From a virus (Duplodnaviria; Heunggongvirae; Uroviricota; Caudoviricetes), in the IMG/VR virus record IMGVR_UViG_2917398303_000004, positions 1-40,414 of that record: a stretch of 40,414 bases of DNA. One strand, given 5' to 3'. The position numbers and the translations under genes were made by a program. Shown piece by piece: positions 3,702 to 39,404 of this stretch; position 1 is the stretch's first letter, and each line of letters opens with the position of its first letter. The notes under the pieces are model-generated. The model did not search any database and was not told the DNA's origin. It saw nothing but the letters and a program-made list of their open reading frames with translations.

Positions 3702-6419
3702 TTAAGCTACATTGCCGGGGTAGGAGGCATTGTCGTATTGATAGAAGGAGTCGCGGTATTCTTTTGCTGTAACCTGACATGTTCCGTCAGACTGCGGTGA
3801 AATCTCTGAGATTAGTGCGCTGTAACCAACACGTGAAGATTCGCAGAATATAAGGCGTGGAGGTTCGATAGATTGATCATTCAGTATGATGCCGATGAAC
3901 TCATCCTGTTCAGACACCGATAATTCATAATCACTAACCTTAGTAACTGGAAGCAAACCAGACGCTGAGCCATCCTGATAGCGAATTAACGCGCGCGGAT
4001 TGTTGAATGTCCAGTCAAGTGGTTCTGATACAGCGATAGTTGTTACACCACCTACAGTTCTCATATGATCAATCAAAGTGCTGATTGTTTTGCTACCTGG
4101 AATGTCATCAGTAAAAACAATTCGGTCGCCTACGTTATAGCAAAGCGCGTCCATTTCCGTGGTCGTGGTATGGGTCAAACGCTGCTGCCTGTACTTCATC
4201 AGCCTTCGCATGCCTATCTGATAAGCTCTGTCCTGATCAAGCACGCCATCAAGCGTATAATCTTCAACTTTAACTGGAGTAGGATTACCCGATGTTCTGC
4301 ACTGAACCGTCTCTTCAGCCCACGTAGTGCCATTAATGTAAGTGACATCCACGCCATCATAATCATCGGCTGATGGTGCAACGAAGGCCGTTTGAAGCGC
4401 TTCTGTCATTTCCTGCGGGCTAATGATTCCCGTCCACGTTTTCACCCCCTCCCTTCCAACAGAAGCCATACCATCAGACAGCAGGAAATAGCTTTTACCT
4501 GCACTGGTGACTTTCTGAAACATTTCAAGAGCGGAAACTGAGTCTGTTGTTGCGTAATCGAAAAACTCGCTATCAGGCGTCCAGTAAGATGATTCCAGCA
4601 TATCAATCGCTTCGTTATCCATCGCAAGCCCCAGCTCATTTCCAATGTGGTATAGCGCACCTGAAATGCTCCTGGAAATACCGGAATCATAAATGCGTGT
4701 GGCGACTACGTTGACACGGCGATCGGACTGAGCGGCAAGCTTTCCACCCGTTTCGACTGAGACAGCCATAGTGGTTACACCAGAGTATGATGATGGTCTT
4801 GAAAGCAACCTCCCCCTCAATGACTGCCAGTACATGTTATCCCTGCTGTTATCCTGACCTTGTTCGTTCGTTCTCCTGCATCTAACCTCTACCAAACCGG
4901 CTGATGCCAACGTGATACGCTCAGTAAAACCTAACCCATTAATATTTTGCTGATTGTAAGATCCAGTTTTGCTGGTCCAGCCTGAACCAGAACCGTAAAC
5001 ACGGTATTGAATTTCCCACTGAACAATCCTGTTCTGCTTCCTGCCCTTCTTGTTATACCCACAAATACCGTTTGGGAAGAAGAAATTGACCTCAAACATA
5101 TCAACGACTTCATTATCTGGACATGTGAGAAACGGCCCCATCCATTTATTGTTCTGATTTAATCCGTTTGCTTCAAAATCAAGCACTGTACGCGGCGTGA
5201 AACCTGGCCATTCCGGGTCAACAGCACCCTCTACAACACGCTGTAAAGTAACGGTGCTGGCGTCGATTTCCAGAATTTTATATTCGCTGCCTGAGTGCGA
5301 TACTGATAAACGAATGTATCCTTCAGGAATACCAGTAAATGCTGTTCCGGTTGCGCTTTCATACGCCAGAGCGATTGACGCCGTAACAACGTCTTCATCA
5401 ACAGGTTCTGAATGGGGGATGTAATCAGCAATGAAAAGCTGGTAATCGATACTGTTGTACCAGAGAGTAACTGGCATACCGATGTATGGAGCAATCTCTT
5501 CCAGTGTGTCACTGGTTATTCTGCTGTATGCGCCATCATTGGTGACAACATAAGAATCTGGAACAATCAGTTCAACAATTGCACCTTCTGTCCATGAGTC
5601 AGGAAGGTCGTTTGTATCAGTATTTCCATCGTCAGTACTAAGGCCGTTAAAGGTGATATCTGCACCAGATACCGTTAATGAATCTGCTACAACATCCTGT
5701 GTATCCGGGGCTGTCTGCGCCATATCAAGACCAGAACCAGATGCCGTTCCGCCTACTTCTGTTGAGTTGAACCAGTTTTCCGTTCGCTGATCACCGATAA
5801 TGTTCTGTCCTGGCTGATATACATTATAGGTAAACCCATCACCAAGAGAGGCGATTGGCGTTGACCCAACGCGAATGTCGCCATCACCAAATGAAAAACG
5901 GCCCATACCCAGCACCACAAACATTTCAACCGTCATTACAGTCGGATCATCAGTTGAGAATCTTGTTACTGGTTGCACTGCATAATCTGGATAAATACGG
6001 CTGCGACCAAATAACTCGCGTATCGGATCACCCAATTTCGCGTTATTCGCTTTAGCAGGATTTACATCAAGTGGATTACCTGTTCCTGATGAATAACCAC
6101 CAAGATCACCAACACCAGGAGCAAAGAATAAAGCGTAAGCTACAGACGCAACTGATACGGCAACTGCAATCCAGGCGAGAGCTACAGCACCGTAAGGAAC
6201 AGGATAAATTCTGACGTCGCTATCCGGGCTGATTGCGAACTCAAACCACGCCTGAGATGGAATATTTTTCCCATCAACGTCAATTGTGATCGGCTGTTTA
6301 ATATCAGGCTTATAGCCCTCTACTTTTTTTGACAGCCATTGATGTATGGTTATAGCGCCATGTTCATGTGTTTCCAGCGGTTCGCCGGGGATGCGGGAGG
6401 GGTAAATTCGGATAGTCAC
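3702..6419 (-). CDS. Tail tip / host-specificity (central fibre, J-like) protein
   Basis: 905-aa protein immediately downstream of NlpC/P60 tail assembly gene and upstream of tail fibre; start overlaps upstream stop. Confidence 0.6.
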   Translation of the reverse strand: MTIRIYPSRIPGEPLETHEHGAITIHQWLSKKVEGYKPDIKQPITIDVDGKNIPSQAWFEFAISPDSDVRIYPVPYGAVALAWIAVAVSVASVAYALFFAPGVGDLGGYSSGTGNPLDVNPAKANNAKLGDPIRELFGRSRIYPDYAVQPVTRFSTDDPTVMTVEMFVVLGMGRFSFGDGDIRVGSTPIASLGDGFTYNVYQPGQNIIGDQRTENWFNSTEVGGTASGSGLDMAQTAPDTQDVVADSLTVSGADITFNGLSTDDGNTDTNDLPDSWTEGAIVELIVPDSYVVTNDGAYSRITSDTLEEIAPYIGMPVTLWYNSIDYQLFIADYIPHSEPVDEDVVTASIALAYESATGTAFTGIPEGYIRLSVSHSGSEYKILEIDASTVTLQRVVEGAVDPEWPGFTPRTVLDFEANGLNQNNKWMGPFLTCPDNEVVDMFEVNFFFPNGICGYNKKGRKQNRIVQWEIQYRVYGSGSGWTSKTGSYNQQNINGLGFTERITLASAGLVEVRCRRTNEQGQDNSRDNMYWQSLRGRLLSRPSSYSGVTTMAVSVETGGKLAAQSDRRVNVVATRIYDSGISRSISGALYHIGNELGLAMDNEAIDMLESSYWTPDSEFFDYATTDSVSALEMFQKVTSAGKSYFLLSDGMASVGREGVKTWTGIISPQEMTEALQTAFVAPSADDYDGVDVTYINGTTWAEETVQCRTSGNPTPVKVEDYTLDGVLDQDRAYQIGMRRLMKYRQQRLTHTTTTEMDALCYNVGDRIVFTDDIPGSKTISTLIDHMRTVGGVTTIAVSEPLDWTFNNPRALIRYQDGSASGLLPVTKVSDYELSVSEQDEFIGIILNDQSIEPPRLIFCESSRVGYSALISEISPQSDGTCQVTAKEYRDSFYQYDNASYPGNVA

Positions 6420-26733: not shown

Positions 26734-26762
26734 ATTTAAGCACCTTCTGGCTCACATTGCAA
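26734..26762 (-). promoter_or_regulatory. Candidate late promoter pR' (TTGCAA-17-TTAAAT) overlapping Q stop codon
   Basis: Sigma70-like -35/-10 with 17-bp spacer on minus strand, directly upstream of the tR'-like terminator. Confidence 0.4.
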
Positions 26763-27356
26763 CTTAAATCTGCTGCTATTTGTGCCGAATGCATCACACA
26801 TTGGTGCATAAAGCATGAATTCTGCCAAACTTAGCCAAGAATCAATTCTGCGGCGGCAGGTCATGTAGCACCACTCTGGATGACGCTTTTGAAGTTGCTC
26901 TGCCATGAAGCGTTTGCTCTTGCGATAGCGGTATCGGTCCAGTAGCACATCAAACAATCCGTTATGACCATTTGAGATCAGCACAGCCGCGATAACGCCA
27001 TCAATGCATACACCCTCATCATCTGAGCAGAACGCAATGCCTGTCTTGTTTTTGCCATCGAGAATTTCACGGAAGAACGCTTCGAGTTCTGGTTTCGACA
27101 GCCCTGATTTCTTCATGCGACGTAAAGCGTCATTGATGGCTGTCTTGGTGATTTTCCCGGAGGCCAACAACTGGTTAAACATATTGCCGCCTGAGCCGCC
27201 ACCTATGAATGACCAGCGGCCCCACATACGTAGTTTGCCCTGAATCCATACACTTTCCAGTGTACGCAGTCGTGCCATTTCCCCGGATTTGCCAACTTCG
27301 GAAGGATTAATCATTTTGCGTCTCCACTTACGCCAGTACACCGGTTGCCAGCGCAT
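26736..27356 (-). CDS. Late-gene antiterminator Q-like protein
   Basis: Position immediately upstream of pR'/tR' and lysis genes; size and Cys/His content compatible with Q family; no motif confirmed. Confidence 0.5.
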   Translation of the reverse strand: MRWQPVYWRKWRRKMINPSEVGKSGEMARLRTLESVWIQGKLRMWGRWSFIGGGSGGNMFNQLLASGKITKTAINDALRRMKKSGLSKPELEAFFREILDGKNKTGIAFCSDDEGVCIDGVIAAVLISNGHNGLFDVLLDRYRYRKSKRFMAEQLQKRHPEWCYMTCRRRIDSWLSLAEFMLYAPMCDAFGTNSSRFKLQCEPEGA

Positions 27357-33128: not shown

Positions 33129-33141
33129 CTACTTATAGTAG
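33129..33141. promoter_or_regulatory. OR operator palindrome CTACTTATAGTAG
   Basis: Inverted repeat CTACT-N3-AGTAG in the cro-cI intergenic region; same motif recurs at 34000-34012. Confidence 0.55.
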
Positions 33142-33166: not shown

Positions 33167-33886
33167 ATGACAACTATGCCTTGTGCGCTTAATCTTCTAC
33201 TTATGGTGGAAAATGCTAAATACAAAGACTTTGCCGACAGGCTAAACAAGTCTCTCCAAGAGCAATCAATTGGAGTTAAAGAATTGTCAGAGTTCAGTGG
33301 TGTCTCATATGAGATGGCGCGACGCTATACTCTTGGTACTGCAAAACCACGAGATGAAAAGATGATTCGAATTGCAGACAGGCTTGCCGTATCCCCTGCT
33401 TATCTTGATTACGGGGTACCTGTTAATGGCGGTGATGCGCCCGCTACCGGGACGGTTAGAATTCAGCAATTGGATGTACATGCATCAGCCGGTTCGGGAT
33501 ATATCAATCAACCGTTTCCAACGATTGTCAGCTCGATAGAAATACCAGAAGATAGGATTTTCGAATTGTTTGGCCGGAGAAGCTTAGATGGTATCGTGAT
33601 GATCAACGTAGATGGCGACAGTATGATGCCTACGTTGTGCCCTAAGGATCTGCTCTTCATTGATAGTAAAGTTGAGCAATTCAGTGGAGATGGTGTTTAC
33701 GTGTTCAACTTCGAGGACAGTACCTTTGTAAAAAGACTACAAAAAGTTAAAGGTCGTCGTCTGGCTGTCCTATCAGACAATGAACACTATCCTCCCTTCT
33801 TCATAGAAGAACACGAAATGAATGAGGTTTACATCTTCGGCAAACTTATCAGATGTTTACCTCTGAAAATGATAGAGTTTGGATAA
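33167..33886 (+). CDS. cI: CI-like repressor (HTH plus S24 LexA-type autopeptidase domain)
   Basis: N-terminal HTH, C-terminal GDSM Ser motif and downstream Lys; possibly leaderless start at 33167. Confidence 0.8.
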   Translation: MTTMPCALNLLLMVENAKYKDFADRLNKSLQEQSIGVKELSEFSGVSYEMARRYTLGTAKPRDEKMIRIADRLAVSPAYLDYGVPVNGGDAPATGTVRIQQLDVHASAGSGYINQPFPTIVSSIEIPEDRIFELFGRRSLDGIVMINVDGDSMMPTLCPKDLLFIDSKVEQFSGDGVYVFNFEDSTFVKRLQKVKGRRLAVLSDNEHYPPFFIEEHEMNEVYIFGKLIRCLPLKMIEFG

Positions 33887-33902
33887 TCATTCATCCATAA
33901 AG

Positions 33903-33926
33903 AACCGGCGAAAGCCGGTTTTTTTT
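33903..33926 (+). terminator. Rho-independent terminator after cI (AACCGGCGAAAGCCGGTT + T8)
   Basis: Perfect 7-bp stem, GAAA loop, T-run. Confidence 0.7.
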
Positions 33927-33989
33927 CGCTATAAAATCTTATGCACTATAAAAAAACAACCTAAAAGATAATTTTTCTACTTTTTGTTG

Positions 33990-34019
33990 TTGCATTTATC
34001 TACTTAAAGTAGCTATATT
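33990..34019 (+). promoter_or_regulatory. pL-like promoter (TTGCAT-18-TATATT) with embedded OL operator CTACTTAAAGTAG at 34000-34012
   Basis: Sigma70-like hexamers; operator palindrome differs from the OR copy by one central base. Confidence 0.55.
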
Positions 34020-34372
34020 CTATTCACCAACAGCAAACAGCCAATCACGGTAAGCATCTCGCAGGGTTCTTACCGGGACTGGAAGAGTTACCACTTGGAG
34101 ACGGTCCTTTTAAATGTCCTGGACAGTGGCGGTACCAGCACCGATAACAGCGGCAGACGTTAAACTGTAAAAACGGAGAGATGCCAGCTCCCTCGACGGC
34201 AGTGACGGCGGGAAGTAGACCGCTGACAGCTCGGAAAGACGAGCACACAACGATGAGAACATTGACGAGCAAGGCATAAAGGCAGGTTCAATTCCTGCCA
34301 CCAGCATAATAATGGTGGTGATGGGCAGGGAAAAGGTCCGTTCAATTCGGACACCGGCAGTGTTCTCTTCGT

Positions 34373-34496
34373 TGTGTTGTAGCTCAATAGGTAGAGCGCC
34401 TCCTGAAGGAGGAGTTGAGCACTAACCAAGGATCATAACCCAGTTATCTCATGCGGCTGGCCAGACGTTATCCGGGTTCGAGTCCCGGCAGCACAA
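34373..34496 (+). ncRNA. tRNA-like element with canonical acceptor, D-arm and T-arm but an aberrant 74-nt central region
   Basis: Acceptor TGTGTTG/CAGCACA, D-arm GCTC-AATAGGTA-GAGC, T-arm CCGGG-TTCGAGT-CCCGG; no canonical anticodon arm could be folded by eye. Confidence 0.4.
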
Positions 34497-34574
34497 CTCA
34501 CAACATGAAAGCGCACTCCTTTACTTACCAGTTATGGGTGACAGGTGTGAAACAGGTGGAGTGCGCTTCCAGTT

Positions 34575-34653
34575 GCGGCATTAGCTCAGTTGGATAGAGC
34601 AACGGCCTTCTAAGCCGTGTGGGTCGCAGGTTCGAATCCTGCATGCTGCACCA
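34575..34653 (+). tRNA. tRNA-Arg (anticodon UCU) with encoded CCA
   Basis: Hand-folded cloverleaf: 7-bp acceptor, D-arm, anticodon stem ACGGC/GCCGT with loop CTTCTAA, 7-nt variable loop, T-arm GCAGG-TTCGAAT-CCTGC; resembles argU-type tRNA. Confidence 0.8.
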
Positions 34654-34997
34654 GAATCACGTAGCCAGCGTGGTACCAGGAAGTAAGAAAGCTGTGTGGA
34701 GTCTTGGCGGTACCAGTACCAACCTTTGAAGTCCCTGGTGCCGCCCTTTTTACTCAACTGAAAGCGCGTTCTGTCCCTTGTCATTAAGTGCCAGTTCGTT
34801 AAATCCAAAACCAGCGGAACGCGCTTTCAATTGAGTGGAGAAACTAACCGGCGATTGCAGTCGCCCGTTTCACTAAGTGCCTCTTGATGGGGCATTTACT
34901 GAAACGAAACCAAAACTTTTATTCGCCTTTTGGCGAGGGATTCGTGCAACCAAAATTCAGCGCCGTGCAGGGCGCATATAACACGGAGAAACTAACC

Positions 34998-35480
34998 ATG
35001 ACGACCACACAGAACGTCACTGAGTTACAACCACGTATGACAAGAGAGCAACTGATCGATGCAGCCCGTAAAGCGGCCCCTCTCCTTCCGGTTGCTTACC
35101 GCGGGATCATGACCGAACTGGCTAACCGTCTTGATATCGTCAGCGTGGCGCTTTGCGAGTCAATGGAACAGCGTAAAGCACTGGCCATCGAGAACACCGT
35201 TTTACGAGACGATGTTAATTGTTGGGCCAAAGAGTGCGACCGCATCGTTGAACGTCATACCAAATCGCCGACCAATATGCACATGCTGGAGGCGCAGAGA
35301 GAATTACGCGAGTTAACTCCGGTAACCGATCAGGTTATTCGCGATATCCAAGCCACTGGCGTGGAAAAGTTCGCAAACGTCACTATTGCCATTGGGAAAG
35401 AAGAGCAACAAGAAACCATTGTTTACGCTGGGAATCAGGCTCTCTTATTCGCTAACCAACTCCGTGAAGGTATTGCGTAA
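34998..35480 (+). CDS. Hypothetical early protein
   Basis: Start at MTTTQ with GGAG Shine-Dalgarno; TAATG coupling to downstream ParB-like gene. Confidence 0.5.
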   Translation: MTTTQNVTELQPRMTREQLIDAARKAAPLLPVAYRGIMTELANRLDIVSVALCESMEQRKALAIENTVLRDDVNCWAKECDRIVERHTKSPTNMHMLEAQRELRELTPVTDQVIRDIQATGVEKFANVTIAIGKEEQQETIVYAGNQALLFANQLREGIA

Positions 35481-39176: not shown

Positions 39177-39404
39177 ATGAGCGGACAAATCCAACGTTTT
39201 CTTACTCCAGATGACCTCTATCAATTAACTGGTTATCGTCGTCCTTCCCTGCAGTGTAAAGCTCTGAGGGATAGTGGAGTATTTTTTATCCCACGCAAGG
39301 ACGGCAGACCAGGAACAACATGGGATCATGTATCAAACCCGGTTGGCCTTAAGTTGATAGTGAGCAATCCAGAGGAAGAAGAACCAAACTTTAAGGATAT
39401 GTAA
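39177..39404 (+). CDS. xis: Excisionase-like protein
   Basis: 75-aa basic ORF immediately upstream of and overlapping the integrase start. Confidence 0.55.
   Translation: MSGQIQRFLTPDDLYQLTGYRRPSLQCKALRDSGVFFIPRKDGRPGTTWDHVSNPVGLKLIVSNPEEEEPNFKDM

Follow-up and report, generated by a model that had tools for sequence, protein, structure and literature searches.

This study concerns the early leader of an approximately 40-kb lambdoid (pro)phage, IMG/VR record IMGVR_UViG_2917398303_000004, whose entire 40,414 nucleotides (oriented opposite to the lambda map) are called the window throughout. The leader extends for about 970 nt (34027-34997; plus strand, as are all leader features below) from a pL-like promoter to the ATG at 34998 of the first credible early-left open reading frame (ORF; 34998-35480, plus strand), rather than for the roughly 850 bp given in a preliminary description of the locus, every other feature of which is present where it was placed and exceeds what chance would provide. 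Downstream of the promoter lie, in this order, a module with an invariant core (S1, with its tail S2), a spacer hairpin (S3), a tRNA-like RNA, a second spacer hairpin (S5), a canonical tRNA-Arg(UCU), a DicF-like small RNA (sRNA) with its terminator, and a third spacer hairpin (S9). In our view the leader probably represents an untranslated, polycistronic string of genes for structured small RNAs, controlled by a repressor at pL and belonging to the same kind of locus as the ydfC-dicF stretch of the E. coli prophage Qin.

An important aspect of the leader is its poverty in coding sequence. From the promoter to the ATG at 34998, no plus-strand ORF exceeds 48 amino acids, and the largest one, of exactly 48 amino acids, overlaps both tRNA-type elements. 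In relatives, the homologous leader modules differ in length by non-multiples of three, and hence no frame is conserved on either strand. An N-like protein was likewise not found among the ORFs of the window, so that the leader is indeed ORF-free and N-less as previously described; additionally, cro and cII overlap, which leaves no room for a nutR-type site. What the leader does contain is structure: its predicted fold as a whole reaches -317.8 kcal/mol (z = -6.0 relative to shuffled controls), and single modules have z-scores between -3.2 and -5.7.

The promoter and its operators span 33977..34019. The hexamers (-35 TTGCAT at 33990-33995 and -10 TATATT at 34014-34019, with an 18-nt spacer) were read by eye from the sequence, and an automatic promoter scan gave no flag there. 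Two copies of the operator palindrome CTACTTAAAGTAG (OL; 33977-33989 and 34000-34012) overlap the promoter, and two further copies (OR; at 33129 and 33152) are found between the cI-like and cro-like genes. Given that the same palindrome covers the promoter and recurs twice between cI and cro, we interpret the promoter as a repressor-controlled pL. The cI-like repressor gene itself (33167-33886, plus strand; S24 peptidase plus helix-turn-helix) is followed by a terminator at 33900-33927, and YdaS/cro-like and CII(CP76)-like genes diverge from it. Elsewhere in the window there are a Q-family antiterminator gene (26736-27356) and an integrase gene (start at 39404).

Comparison with sequence databases resolved the leader into a mosaic of blocks, each conserved separately. 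These modules recur, in varied order and combination, in mEp390, F1055, phiNP, e14, epsilon15-like phages and P1-like phage-plasmids. Across 126 loci that carry S1, the DicF-like hairpin is present in 46 and the tRNA-Arg(UCU) in 20, and the full module order is restricted to the window and one other locus (L009).

Spacer hairpins and cargo modules

Reading related leaders side by side, we found that their modules follow a simple sequence rule. Spacer hairpins, represented in the window by S3, S5 and S9, start with CACAAC and a purine-rich arm and finish with a pyrimidine-rich arm and GUUGUG(G); the cargo modules between them measure about 110-130 nt, start with GUUGUGG and end with CCACAAC. 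The first cargo slot of the window is occupied by the tRNA-like RNA and the second by the tRNA-Arg(UCU), and in other phages the cargo comprises structured modules of at least three unrelated kinds. In relatives, the tRNA-Arg cassettes begin with CGUUGUGGCAU, and the acceptor stem of the tRNA therefore doubles as the helix that closes the cargo. As each GUUGUG can pair either backwards, with its spacer, or forwards, with its cargo, the two helices are mutually exclusive.

The first spacer, S3 (34246..34376, fold z = -5.7), is built on a 19-bp closing stem (CACAACGAUGAGAACAUUG/CAGUGUUCUCUUCGUUGUG), and its tip carries T-loop hairpin A (34281-34299), a variable hairpin M (34298-34318) and T-loop hairpin B (34336-34352). 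Among ten homologues, the closing stem and hairpins A and M display compensatory and wobble changes: within the stem, an A-U pair of the window corresponds to G-C in relatives, accompanied by several wobble changes, and M, the third hairpin, covaries freely, with the purine-rich joining strands GAUGGGCAGGGAAAAG being conserved. These changes, like those in S1, S5 and the terminator stem discussed below, were identified by inspection. Both stem-UUCAAUU-stem hairpins noticed earlier are kept with covarying stems in ten related loci, but the ACCA following hairpin A, which had been singled out as a feature, forms the 5' strand of the next hairpin (the third one) and is not conserved. S5 (34499..34574, fold z = -3.2), with arms GAAAGCGCACUCC (34507-34519) and GGAGUGCGCUUC (34558-34569), directly abuts base 1 of the tRNA-Arg with its 3' end, and has a homologue, with a compensatory change, ahead of dicF in Qin, mEp390 and L012. 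S9 (34752..34836, z = -3.6) is a long hairpin of about 22 bp directly past the DicF-like terminator, and homologous hairpins obeying the CACAAC...GUUGUG rule follow the DicF-like RNA in F1055, phiNP and e14. Between this last hairpin and the first ORF, a segment of 135 nt is bracketed by a 13-nt direct repeat read from the sequence (GGAGAAACTAACC; 34837-34849 and 34985-34997), the second copy of which constitutes the ribosome-binding site of the ORF at 34998. The same motif also follows the last hairpin in e14 and F1055, and the bracketed segment looks like a mosaic joint or an insertion.

Upstream of the first spacer, S1 (34036..34152) begins about 10 nt past the predicted transcription start. 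Alignment and consensus folding of eight copies placed an invariant core of 57 nt (GGGACUGGAAGAGUUACCACUUGGAGACGGUCCUUUUAAAUGUCCUGGACAGUGGCG) between a 5' hairpin that shows covariation and a small hairpin on the 3' side that varies. The core is identical in every enterobacterial copy examined, be it lambdoid or epsilon15-like (e.g., in the podoviruses PAT1 and Kp4865-1), and an exact 30-mer taken from it is present in at least 119 viral contigs of IMG/VR. A diverged version exists in Burkholderia phage Mica (L055, 1470-1600), in which the enterobacterial helices CCACU/AGUGG and GGAC/GUCC appear as CCCUU/AAGGG and GGUC/GACC, respectively. As these two compensating helices would cross each other, the comparison suggests that S1 forms a pseudoknot. 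No match to S1 was obtained in Rfam. The tail of the module, S2 (34153..34245), ends in the hairpin GCUCG-GAAAGA-CGAGC (34229-34244) just before CACAAC; it is kept together with S1 in L003, L011 and L025, and a hairpin of this type with the ending CACACAAC recurs in L144, L150 and L151.

The variable hairpin of S1 also accounts for one half of a repeat that had been proposed to flank the cluster as a recombination junction. The 12-mer TGGCGGTACCAG does occur exactly twice, at 34127 and 34705, where 0.12 chance matches would be expected with at most one mismatch. Its first copy (34127-34138) lies inside the S1 hairpin CGGU-ACCAGC-ACCG, which in relatives reads CGGU-UCCGC-ACCG, CGC-UUCGGCA-GCG or other variants; its second copy (34705-34716) is the 5' arm of the DicF-like terminator. 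By sequence, then, the two copies belong to unrelated hairpins, and we rejected a role as junction or duplication because the first copy is missing from L010 and L150, although the cluster, or its tRNA-Arg/DicF-like part, is present there.

A tRNA-like RNA and a tRNA-Arg gene

The tRNA-like RNA (34371..34497) has about 125 nt, folds into six helices and does not encode CCA. The Rfam tRNA model scores its positions 34373-34496 at 45.9 bits (gathering threshold 29), whereas ARAGORN calls none of the copies, that of the window included. A 9-bp acceptor-type stem (34371-34379/34489-34497), lengthened by the flanks GU.../...AC and bulged in most copies, is never followed by CCA. A D arm comes next, and the anticodon-arm position is taken by a hairpin, P3 (34399-34412), with a loop of 4-6 nt and variable sequence. 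It is followed by a long arm (P4/P5) of about 13 layers capped by a NUCAUAA loop (AUCAUAA in the window, 34432-34438), by a hairpin with a GGCC loop, P6 (34456-34466), in place of a class-II variable arm, and by the T arm (34472-34488).

Strong evidence for this fold comes from covariation. With a covariance model, R1, a total of 24 distinct copies could be assembled; they come from viral contigs, Cronobacter phage JK004 and P1-like phage-plasmids. Standard pairs fill 97.3% of the pair cells, compared with 39-53% in controls with slid partners. Both positions have changed in 14 pairs, and none of 500 shuffles reached any of these measures. The acceptor, D and T arms are 99-100% paired over the 24 copies, in keeping with a tRNA-type elbow, and compensatory changes also maintain P3, P5 and P6, the helices that a tRNA does not have. 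The earlier reading of proper acceptor, D and T arms without an anticodon arm is therefore correct, but the 74-nt centre that was thought not to fold consists of three conserved helices. In other words, compared with a canonical tRNA (about 74-95 nt, with a 5-bp anticodon stem and a 7-nt loop after position 26, and a short or class-II variable region), the RNA has about 53 extra nucleotides arranged as these helices, no canonical anticodon arm and no encoded CCA.

On these grounds we regard the element as a conserved, structured, tRNA-derived RNA. It is almost certainly no decoder, judging from the presence of P3 in the anticodon position, the location of CAU on a ~13-layer arm, the absence of CCA and the variants of the loop, which reads CAU in 22 of the 24 copies and CGU in two copies from Salmonella plasmids, and which has U at "position 37" in one. 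It shares with the tRNA-Arg cassettes of relatives a 5' flank, the start of the acceptor stem and the D arm (CGUUGUGG-AUGUAGCUCAAUUGGUUAGAGC in one and CGUUGUGG-CAUUAGCUCAGUUGGAUAGAGC in the other). A D/T-loop elbow within a non-decoding RNA is also a property of tmRNA, of the bacterial Y RNA YrlA and of mascRNA; however, the topology of the tRNA-like RNA is not permuted, as it is in YrlA, ARAGORN found no tmRNA, and Rfam gave no match to Y RNA and chance-level matches to tmRNA and mascRNA. We thus rejected these and other Rfam families as candidates, the leader having produced tRNA matches and a sub-threshold DicF match only. We also found no described tRNA-like family of this type in the literature searched.

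Homologues occupy comparable places in other replicons. In P1-like phage-plasmids (e.g., L056, and L057 at 1501-1626) the tRNA-like RNA resides in an ORF-free, repressor-controlled leader upstream of coi-c1, where it is preceded by other CACAAC/GUUGUGG modules, and in the L012 group it fills the slot of the tRNA-Arg, directly upstream of the S7 hairpin and the DicF-like RNA. The copy in an 89-kb plasmid of E. coli CH468 (L056, 3003-3131) is labelled by PGAP as a 129-nt tRNA-Met, which it probably is not in the sense of a decoder. A genuine tRNA(CAU), called tRNA-Ile by PGAP, follows about 350 nt downstream of that copy, and a gene for Tad2, an anti-Thoeris protein, about 800 nt downstream. Two further ideas about the element were discarded. 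Other cargo modules are not divergent copies of it, given that R1 returns a single copy per locus, and a short peptide in its centre (UUG AGC ACU ... UAA after GGAGG) does not hold up, as stop positions differ among copies. A scan of genome contigs with the centre of the element gave no matches, and a scan with the boundary motif gave 17, of which five were true enterobacterial matches and the rest chance or coding. By eye, the loop of S5 and the CAU loop could form a kissing pair (CAUAAC/GUUAUG).

The second cargo is an ordinary tRNA gene. As had been proposed, positions 34575-34653 encode a canonical cloverleaf tRNA-Arg(UCU) with an encoded CCA, called tRNA-Arg(tct) by ARAGORN and scored at 66.6 bits by the Rfam tRNA model against a gathering threshold of 29; among known systems, it is closest to the argU-type tRNA-Arg(UCU) and the ileZ-argN-argO sets of Stx phages. 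Read from the sequence, it carries A20, C35, U36 and A73, the identity set for arginine. Its acceptor stem also has a G3.U70 wobble pair, the classic identity element for alanyl-tRNA synthetase. This pair is shared by the phage tRNA-Arg(UCU) family (window, L001, L060, L061 and L062), including the copy from a T4-like Klebsiella phage, and close relatives additionally have U2.G71; it is possible that such tRNAs have a dual Arg/Ala identity. The window uses AGA at 8.85 per 1000 codons, several-fold above the level typical of E. coli and equal to 99 of 610 Arg codons (16%), and ATA at 10.9 per 1000 codons. With such usage the tRNA plausibly helps phage translation, which agrees with the supply of a rare-codon tRNA suggested earlier. 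Despite its frequent ATA codons, the window encodes no tRNA-Ile2 gene, and a CAU loop is found only in the non-canonical tRNA-like element.

A DicF-like RNA and the dicBF operon of Qin

Directly behind the tRNA-Arg lies a unit (34654..34751) that the preliminary description had overlooked, along with the long spacer hairpins and the modular arrangement. It opens with the hairpin S7 (about 34656-34674) and continues with a single strand rich in purines that includes the conserved motif GCUGUGUGGAGUCUUG, a terminator hairpin (GGCGGUACCAG at 34706-34716 and CUGGUGCCGCC at 34735-34745) and a run of five U (34747-34751). It aligns end to end with the Rfam model (RF00039) of DicF, an RNA that regulates cell division in E. 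coli, and with the "ymfH" region of e14. Relatives score 22.7-29.6 bits with that model, with which a canonical DicF control scores 76.7 bits. The terminator stem covaries in relatives (GGCGGUCG/CGACCGCC in mEp390 and GUCGGCGUC/GACGCCGAC in F1055). As in DicF, the unit sits in a pL-type operon downstream of an RNase III-type hairpin and ends in a GGCGG...CCGCC hairpin with a U run. The unit also combines two traits typical of Hfq-dependent sRNAs, a single strand rich in ARN and a hairpin with a U tail. From its sequence we class 34654-34751 as a putative sRNA of the DicF family, with a hairpin that also serves as an intrinsic terminator.

The most informative comparison is with the dicBF operon of Qin, which, like the operon of the window, is controlled by a repressor from a pL-type promoter. 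The stretch from ydfC to dicF contains a homologue of S5 (GAAAGCGCACGG...CCGUGCGCUUCCGGUUGUGG, ending in CGGUUGUGG), a cargo homologous to one in Salmonella phage F1055, then ...GCUGCAAC, and then DicF. Both loci accordingly have an S5-type hairpin (GAAAGCGCAC.../...GUGCGCUUCC-GUUGUGG), a cargo closed by GUUGUGG...CAAC, and an sRNA with a UUGGCGG...CCGCCCUUUUU terminator. On the other hand, the window has no ORFs ahead of its RNA part where Qin has ydfABC; it has a real tRNA-Arg as the cargo before the sRNA and a second slot with the tRNA-like RNA, and the seed and the loop of the sRNA differ. By this homology, the leader belongs with dicF-type loci and differs from Qin in its cargo. The DicF query used in these comparisons matched 3,969 of 5,426 complete E. 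coli genomes at or close to 100%. In Qin, a 190-nt form of DicF requires RNase III and a 53-nt form RNase E, and both come from the dicBp transcript (Ragunathan et al., PMC10448788). By its length, the 5' end of the 190-nt form would map into the 3' arm of the S5 homologue. The homology to this enzymatically cut precursor also supports the earlier suggestion that the leader contains RNA processing signals.

The unit formed by spacer hairpin, tRNA-Arg, S7, DicF-like RNA and terminator is found in an epsilon15-like prophage (L062), a Klebsiella phage (L060), L150 and many S1-bearing contigs, and from this distribution it appears to be mobile as such. The same type of cargo-plus-terminator unit is represented by STnc100 (RF02076): when its consensus is aligned to e14, it splits into a cargo (UGGUGAAU...CACCGGGAGGCACCCGGCACCA) and a terminator hairpin that takes the position of DicF. 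STnc100 has been reported to be related to PasD (bioRxiv 10.64898/2026.05.13.724894). Rfam found no STnc100 match in the window, whose type of cargo differs.

Several observations on the annotation of related prophages accompany these results. Within Qin (L063), between dicF and dicB, positions 1365-1505 give a sub-threshold STnc100 match (38.8 bits, gathering threshold 47), so that this family of RNA modules may extend to further parts of the dicBF operon. In e14 of E. coli K-12 (L007), positions 2343-2564, annotated as ymfH, appear to hold an unannotated DicF-family RNA (28.5 bits). More generally, the "hypothetical protein" ORFs ymfH of e14, gp36 of mEp390 (L004) and F1055_0036/0037 of F1055 (L005) overlie DicF-like, STnc100-like, S1 and cargo modules, and these ORF calls are probably spurious. 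Our results could therefore aid annotation, both with regard to such leader ORFs and to the tRNA-Met called by PGAP.

Function of the leader and competing explanations

How could such an array work? We propose that pL would be transcribed only once the cI-like repressor leaves, giving rise to a polycistronic structured RNA. By analogy with Qin, RNase III would cut the long spacer stems, and RNase P together with the 3' tRNA-processing enzymes would release the tRNA-Arg, thereby exposing the 5' end of the DicF-like sRNA, which would measure about 98 nt and owe its 3' end to termination. The arrangement is reminiscent of the rRNA operons, in which long flanking helices enclose each product and are cut by RNase III. 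Once released, the tRNA-Arg would support the translation of AGA-rich phage genes, the DicF-like RNA, with a seed unlike that of DicF, would act in trans on host mRNAs, and read-through of the terminator would set the expression level of the early-left operon. As for S1, the tip of S3 and the tRNA-like RNA, our best guess is that they are stable, end-paired, non-decoding RNAs serving as domains for processing or stability, or as mimics that bind proteins.

Several points weigh against this picture. Every cleavage step in this phage is proposed by homology, and the model leaves unexplained how polymerase would pass the DicF-like terminator without N. In the DicF-like unit, the Rfam DicF model scores the window at 17.0 bits over model positions 1-52, below its gathering threshold of 48; the loop reads UACCAACCUUUGAAGUCC where that of DicF reads UUUUACUCCGUGACUGCU, and the 5' region is only partly similar, so that the sequences for pairing with ftsZ and xylR are not preserved. 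DicF is reported to pair with ftsZ through its 3' region, in which the loop lies, and with xylR through its 5' region (PMC5069750). Furthermore, in the unprocessed RNA the full S3 helix (-94.4 kcal/mol) is predicted to be favoured by about 5.7 kcal/mol over a forced tRNA-like acceptor stem (-88.7 kcal/mol). GUUGUG being common to both helices, the tRNA-like fold may form only after cleavage or with tertiary stabilisation. Finally, the tRNA-like copy of the window has a private 1-nt deletion (34440-34446), reading CCCAGTTAT where all relatives read CCCAGGTTAT; relative to the 99.4%-identical copy in L009, one G of P5 is missing and one P5 pair is lost.

Precursors of sRNAs of the dicBF type are the known part of the array, and the new part comprises three conserved structured RNAs (the tRNA-like RNA, S3 and S1) that have clear boundaries, no Rfam family and no description in the literature searched. 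If the array is what we think it is, DicF, STnc100, stray phage tRNAs and "hypothetical" small ORFs become parts of one modular RNA locus governed by a simple sequence rule. This also provides a testable model of how lambdoid phages that lack N could make both a tRNA and an sRNA aimed at the host from one early RNA that is not translated. A bolder and more tentative idea, to which we give appreciably less credence, is that lambdoid, epsilon15-like and P1-like enterobacterial phages share a hitherto unrecognised "RNA cassette array", in which RNase III-type spacers release swappable end-paired cargo. DicF and STnc100 would be two of its products, and the tRNA-like RNA, S3 and S1 new RNA classes, for example tRNA mimics or binders of RNA polymerase or RNases that take part in the lysis-lysogeny switch.

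Among the alternatives to a processed array, the one that fares best, though we deem it unlikely, is that the leader acts mainly in cis to bring about antitermination independently of N. In that case S1 would work on RNA polymerase in the manner of HK022 put, or the 3' spacer arms (GUGCUCUYUUC) would serve as boxA, an element described in PMC3177189 and PMC7665894, recruiting NusB/NusE, shielding the long noncoding transcript from Rho and taking polymerase past the DicF-like terminator. HK022 put and lambda nut/N are, like the modules described here, RNA elements that lambdoid phages carry in their early leaders, and N is absent here as it is in HK022. Such a mechanism would fit the missing N gene, the lack of room for nutR and the intrinsic terminator within the operon. 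It would also fit the start of S1 about 10 nt from that of transcription and the invariance of its core across phage types and hosts, as expected of an RNA contacting a conserved host machine. In some relatives (L012 at ~4878-4896 and other loci) the 3' spacer arms even read UGCUCUUAC or UGCUCUUUUC, close to the boxA sequences of lambda nutR and rrn. Yet no similarity of S1 to HK022 putL/putR above chance was found with blastn at word size 7, nor when the putL region was also read, and the position of S1 varies: in L003 it is away from the promoter, in PAT1 it occupies a long stretch without ORFs between capsid/packaging genes, and in Mica it is just downstream of the integrase gene. The boxA reading is only a weak rival, given that the motifs are base-paired in conserved stems and are poor in the window, where GUGUUCUCUUC and GUGCGCUUCC agree with about 5/8 boxA core positions; the combination of an N protein with a boxA-boxB nut site, as in lambda, is thus missing.

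A counter-defence role, which the preliminary description had also raised for the tRNA cluster, strikes us as less likely still. The tRNA-like RNA, perhaps together with the tRNA-Arg, would then act as a decoy for a tRNA-targeting nuclease, or for a modifying or charging enzyme recognising a CAU-type loop, and the tRNA-Arg would replace cleaved host tRNA. Evasion of anticodon nucleases has been proposed as a role of phage tRNAs (PMC10264068). An intact elbow with its D and T loops, and a NUCAUAA loop presented on a GG/CC-closed stem in 22 of 24 copies, are what a decoy might look like. Moreover, the version in JK004 (GGCUCAUAACC) is identical to the core of the anticodon stem-loop of the genuine tRNA(CAU) of CH468, whose own tRNA-like element is the one close to Tad2. 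The CGU of two divergent copies and the U at position 37 of another speak against recognition of such a loop, no defence system or nuclease partner was identified, and the element is always found in repressor-controlled leaders rather than beside defence or anti-defence genes.

We consider it highly improbable that the tRNA-like RNA is a working tRNA-Met or tRNA-Ile2 (CAU) which, paired with the tRNA-Arg as in the ileZ-argN-argO set, would serve ATA codons. The PGAP label, the frequency of ATA in the window and the order of a CAU element followed by Arg(UCU), which resembles the tRNA set of Stx phages, are in its favour; but a CAU loop on an arm of about 13 layers instead of five, the occupation of the anticodon-arm position by another hairpin, whose loop has 4-6 nt, a 9-bp and mostly bulged acceptor stem without encoded CCA, the same loop variants and the rejection of all copies by ARAGORN are hard to reconcile with decoding. 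Just as remote is the notion that the extra elements are debris of decaying tRNA genes and recombination scars, with only the tRNA-Arg and perhaps the sRNA under selection, since extreme mosaicism, module borders on short conserved sequences, the 13-nt repeat around the insert and the deletion in the tRNA-like copy stand against compensatory changes that keep P3, P5 and P6 of the tRNA-like RNA, the stem and hairpins of S3 and, even in a Burkholderia phage, the helices of S1, as well as against the recurrence of the exact S1 30-mer in so many contigs.

Two minor observations concern the related prophage of E. coli PCP07014 (L001). Just past its repressor gene, positions 1972-2024 give a sub-threshold match (30.9 bits) to AgvB, the anti-GcvB sRNA, and sieB is located on the opposite strand between the repressor and the tRNA-Arg.

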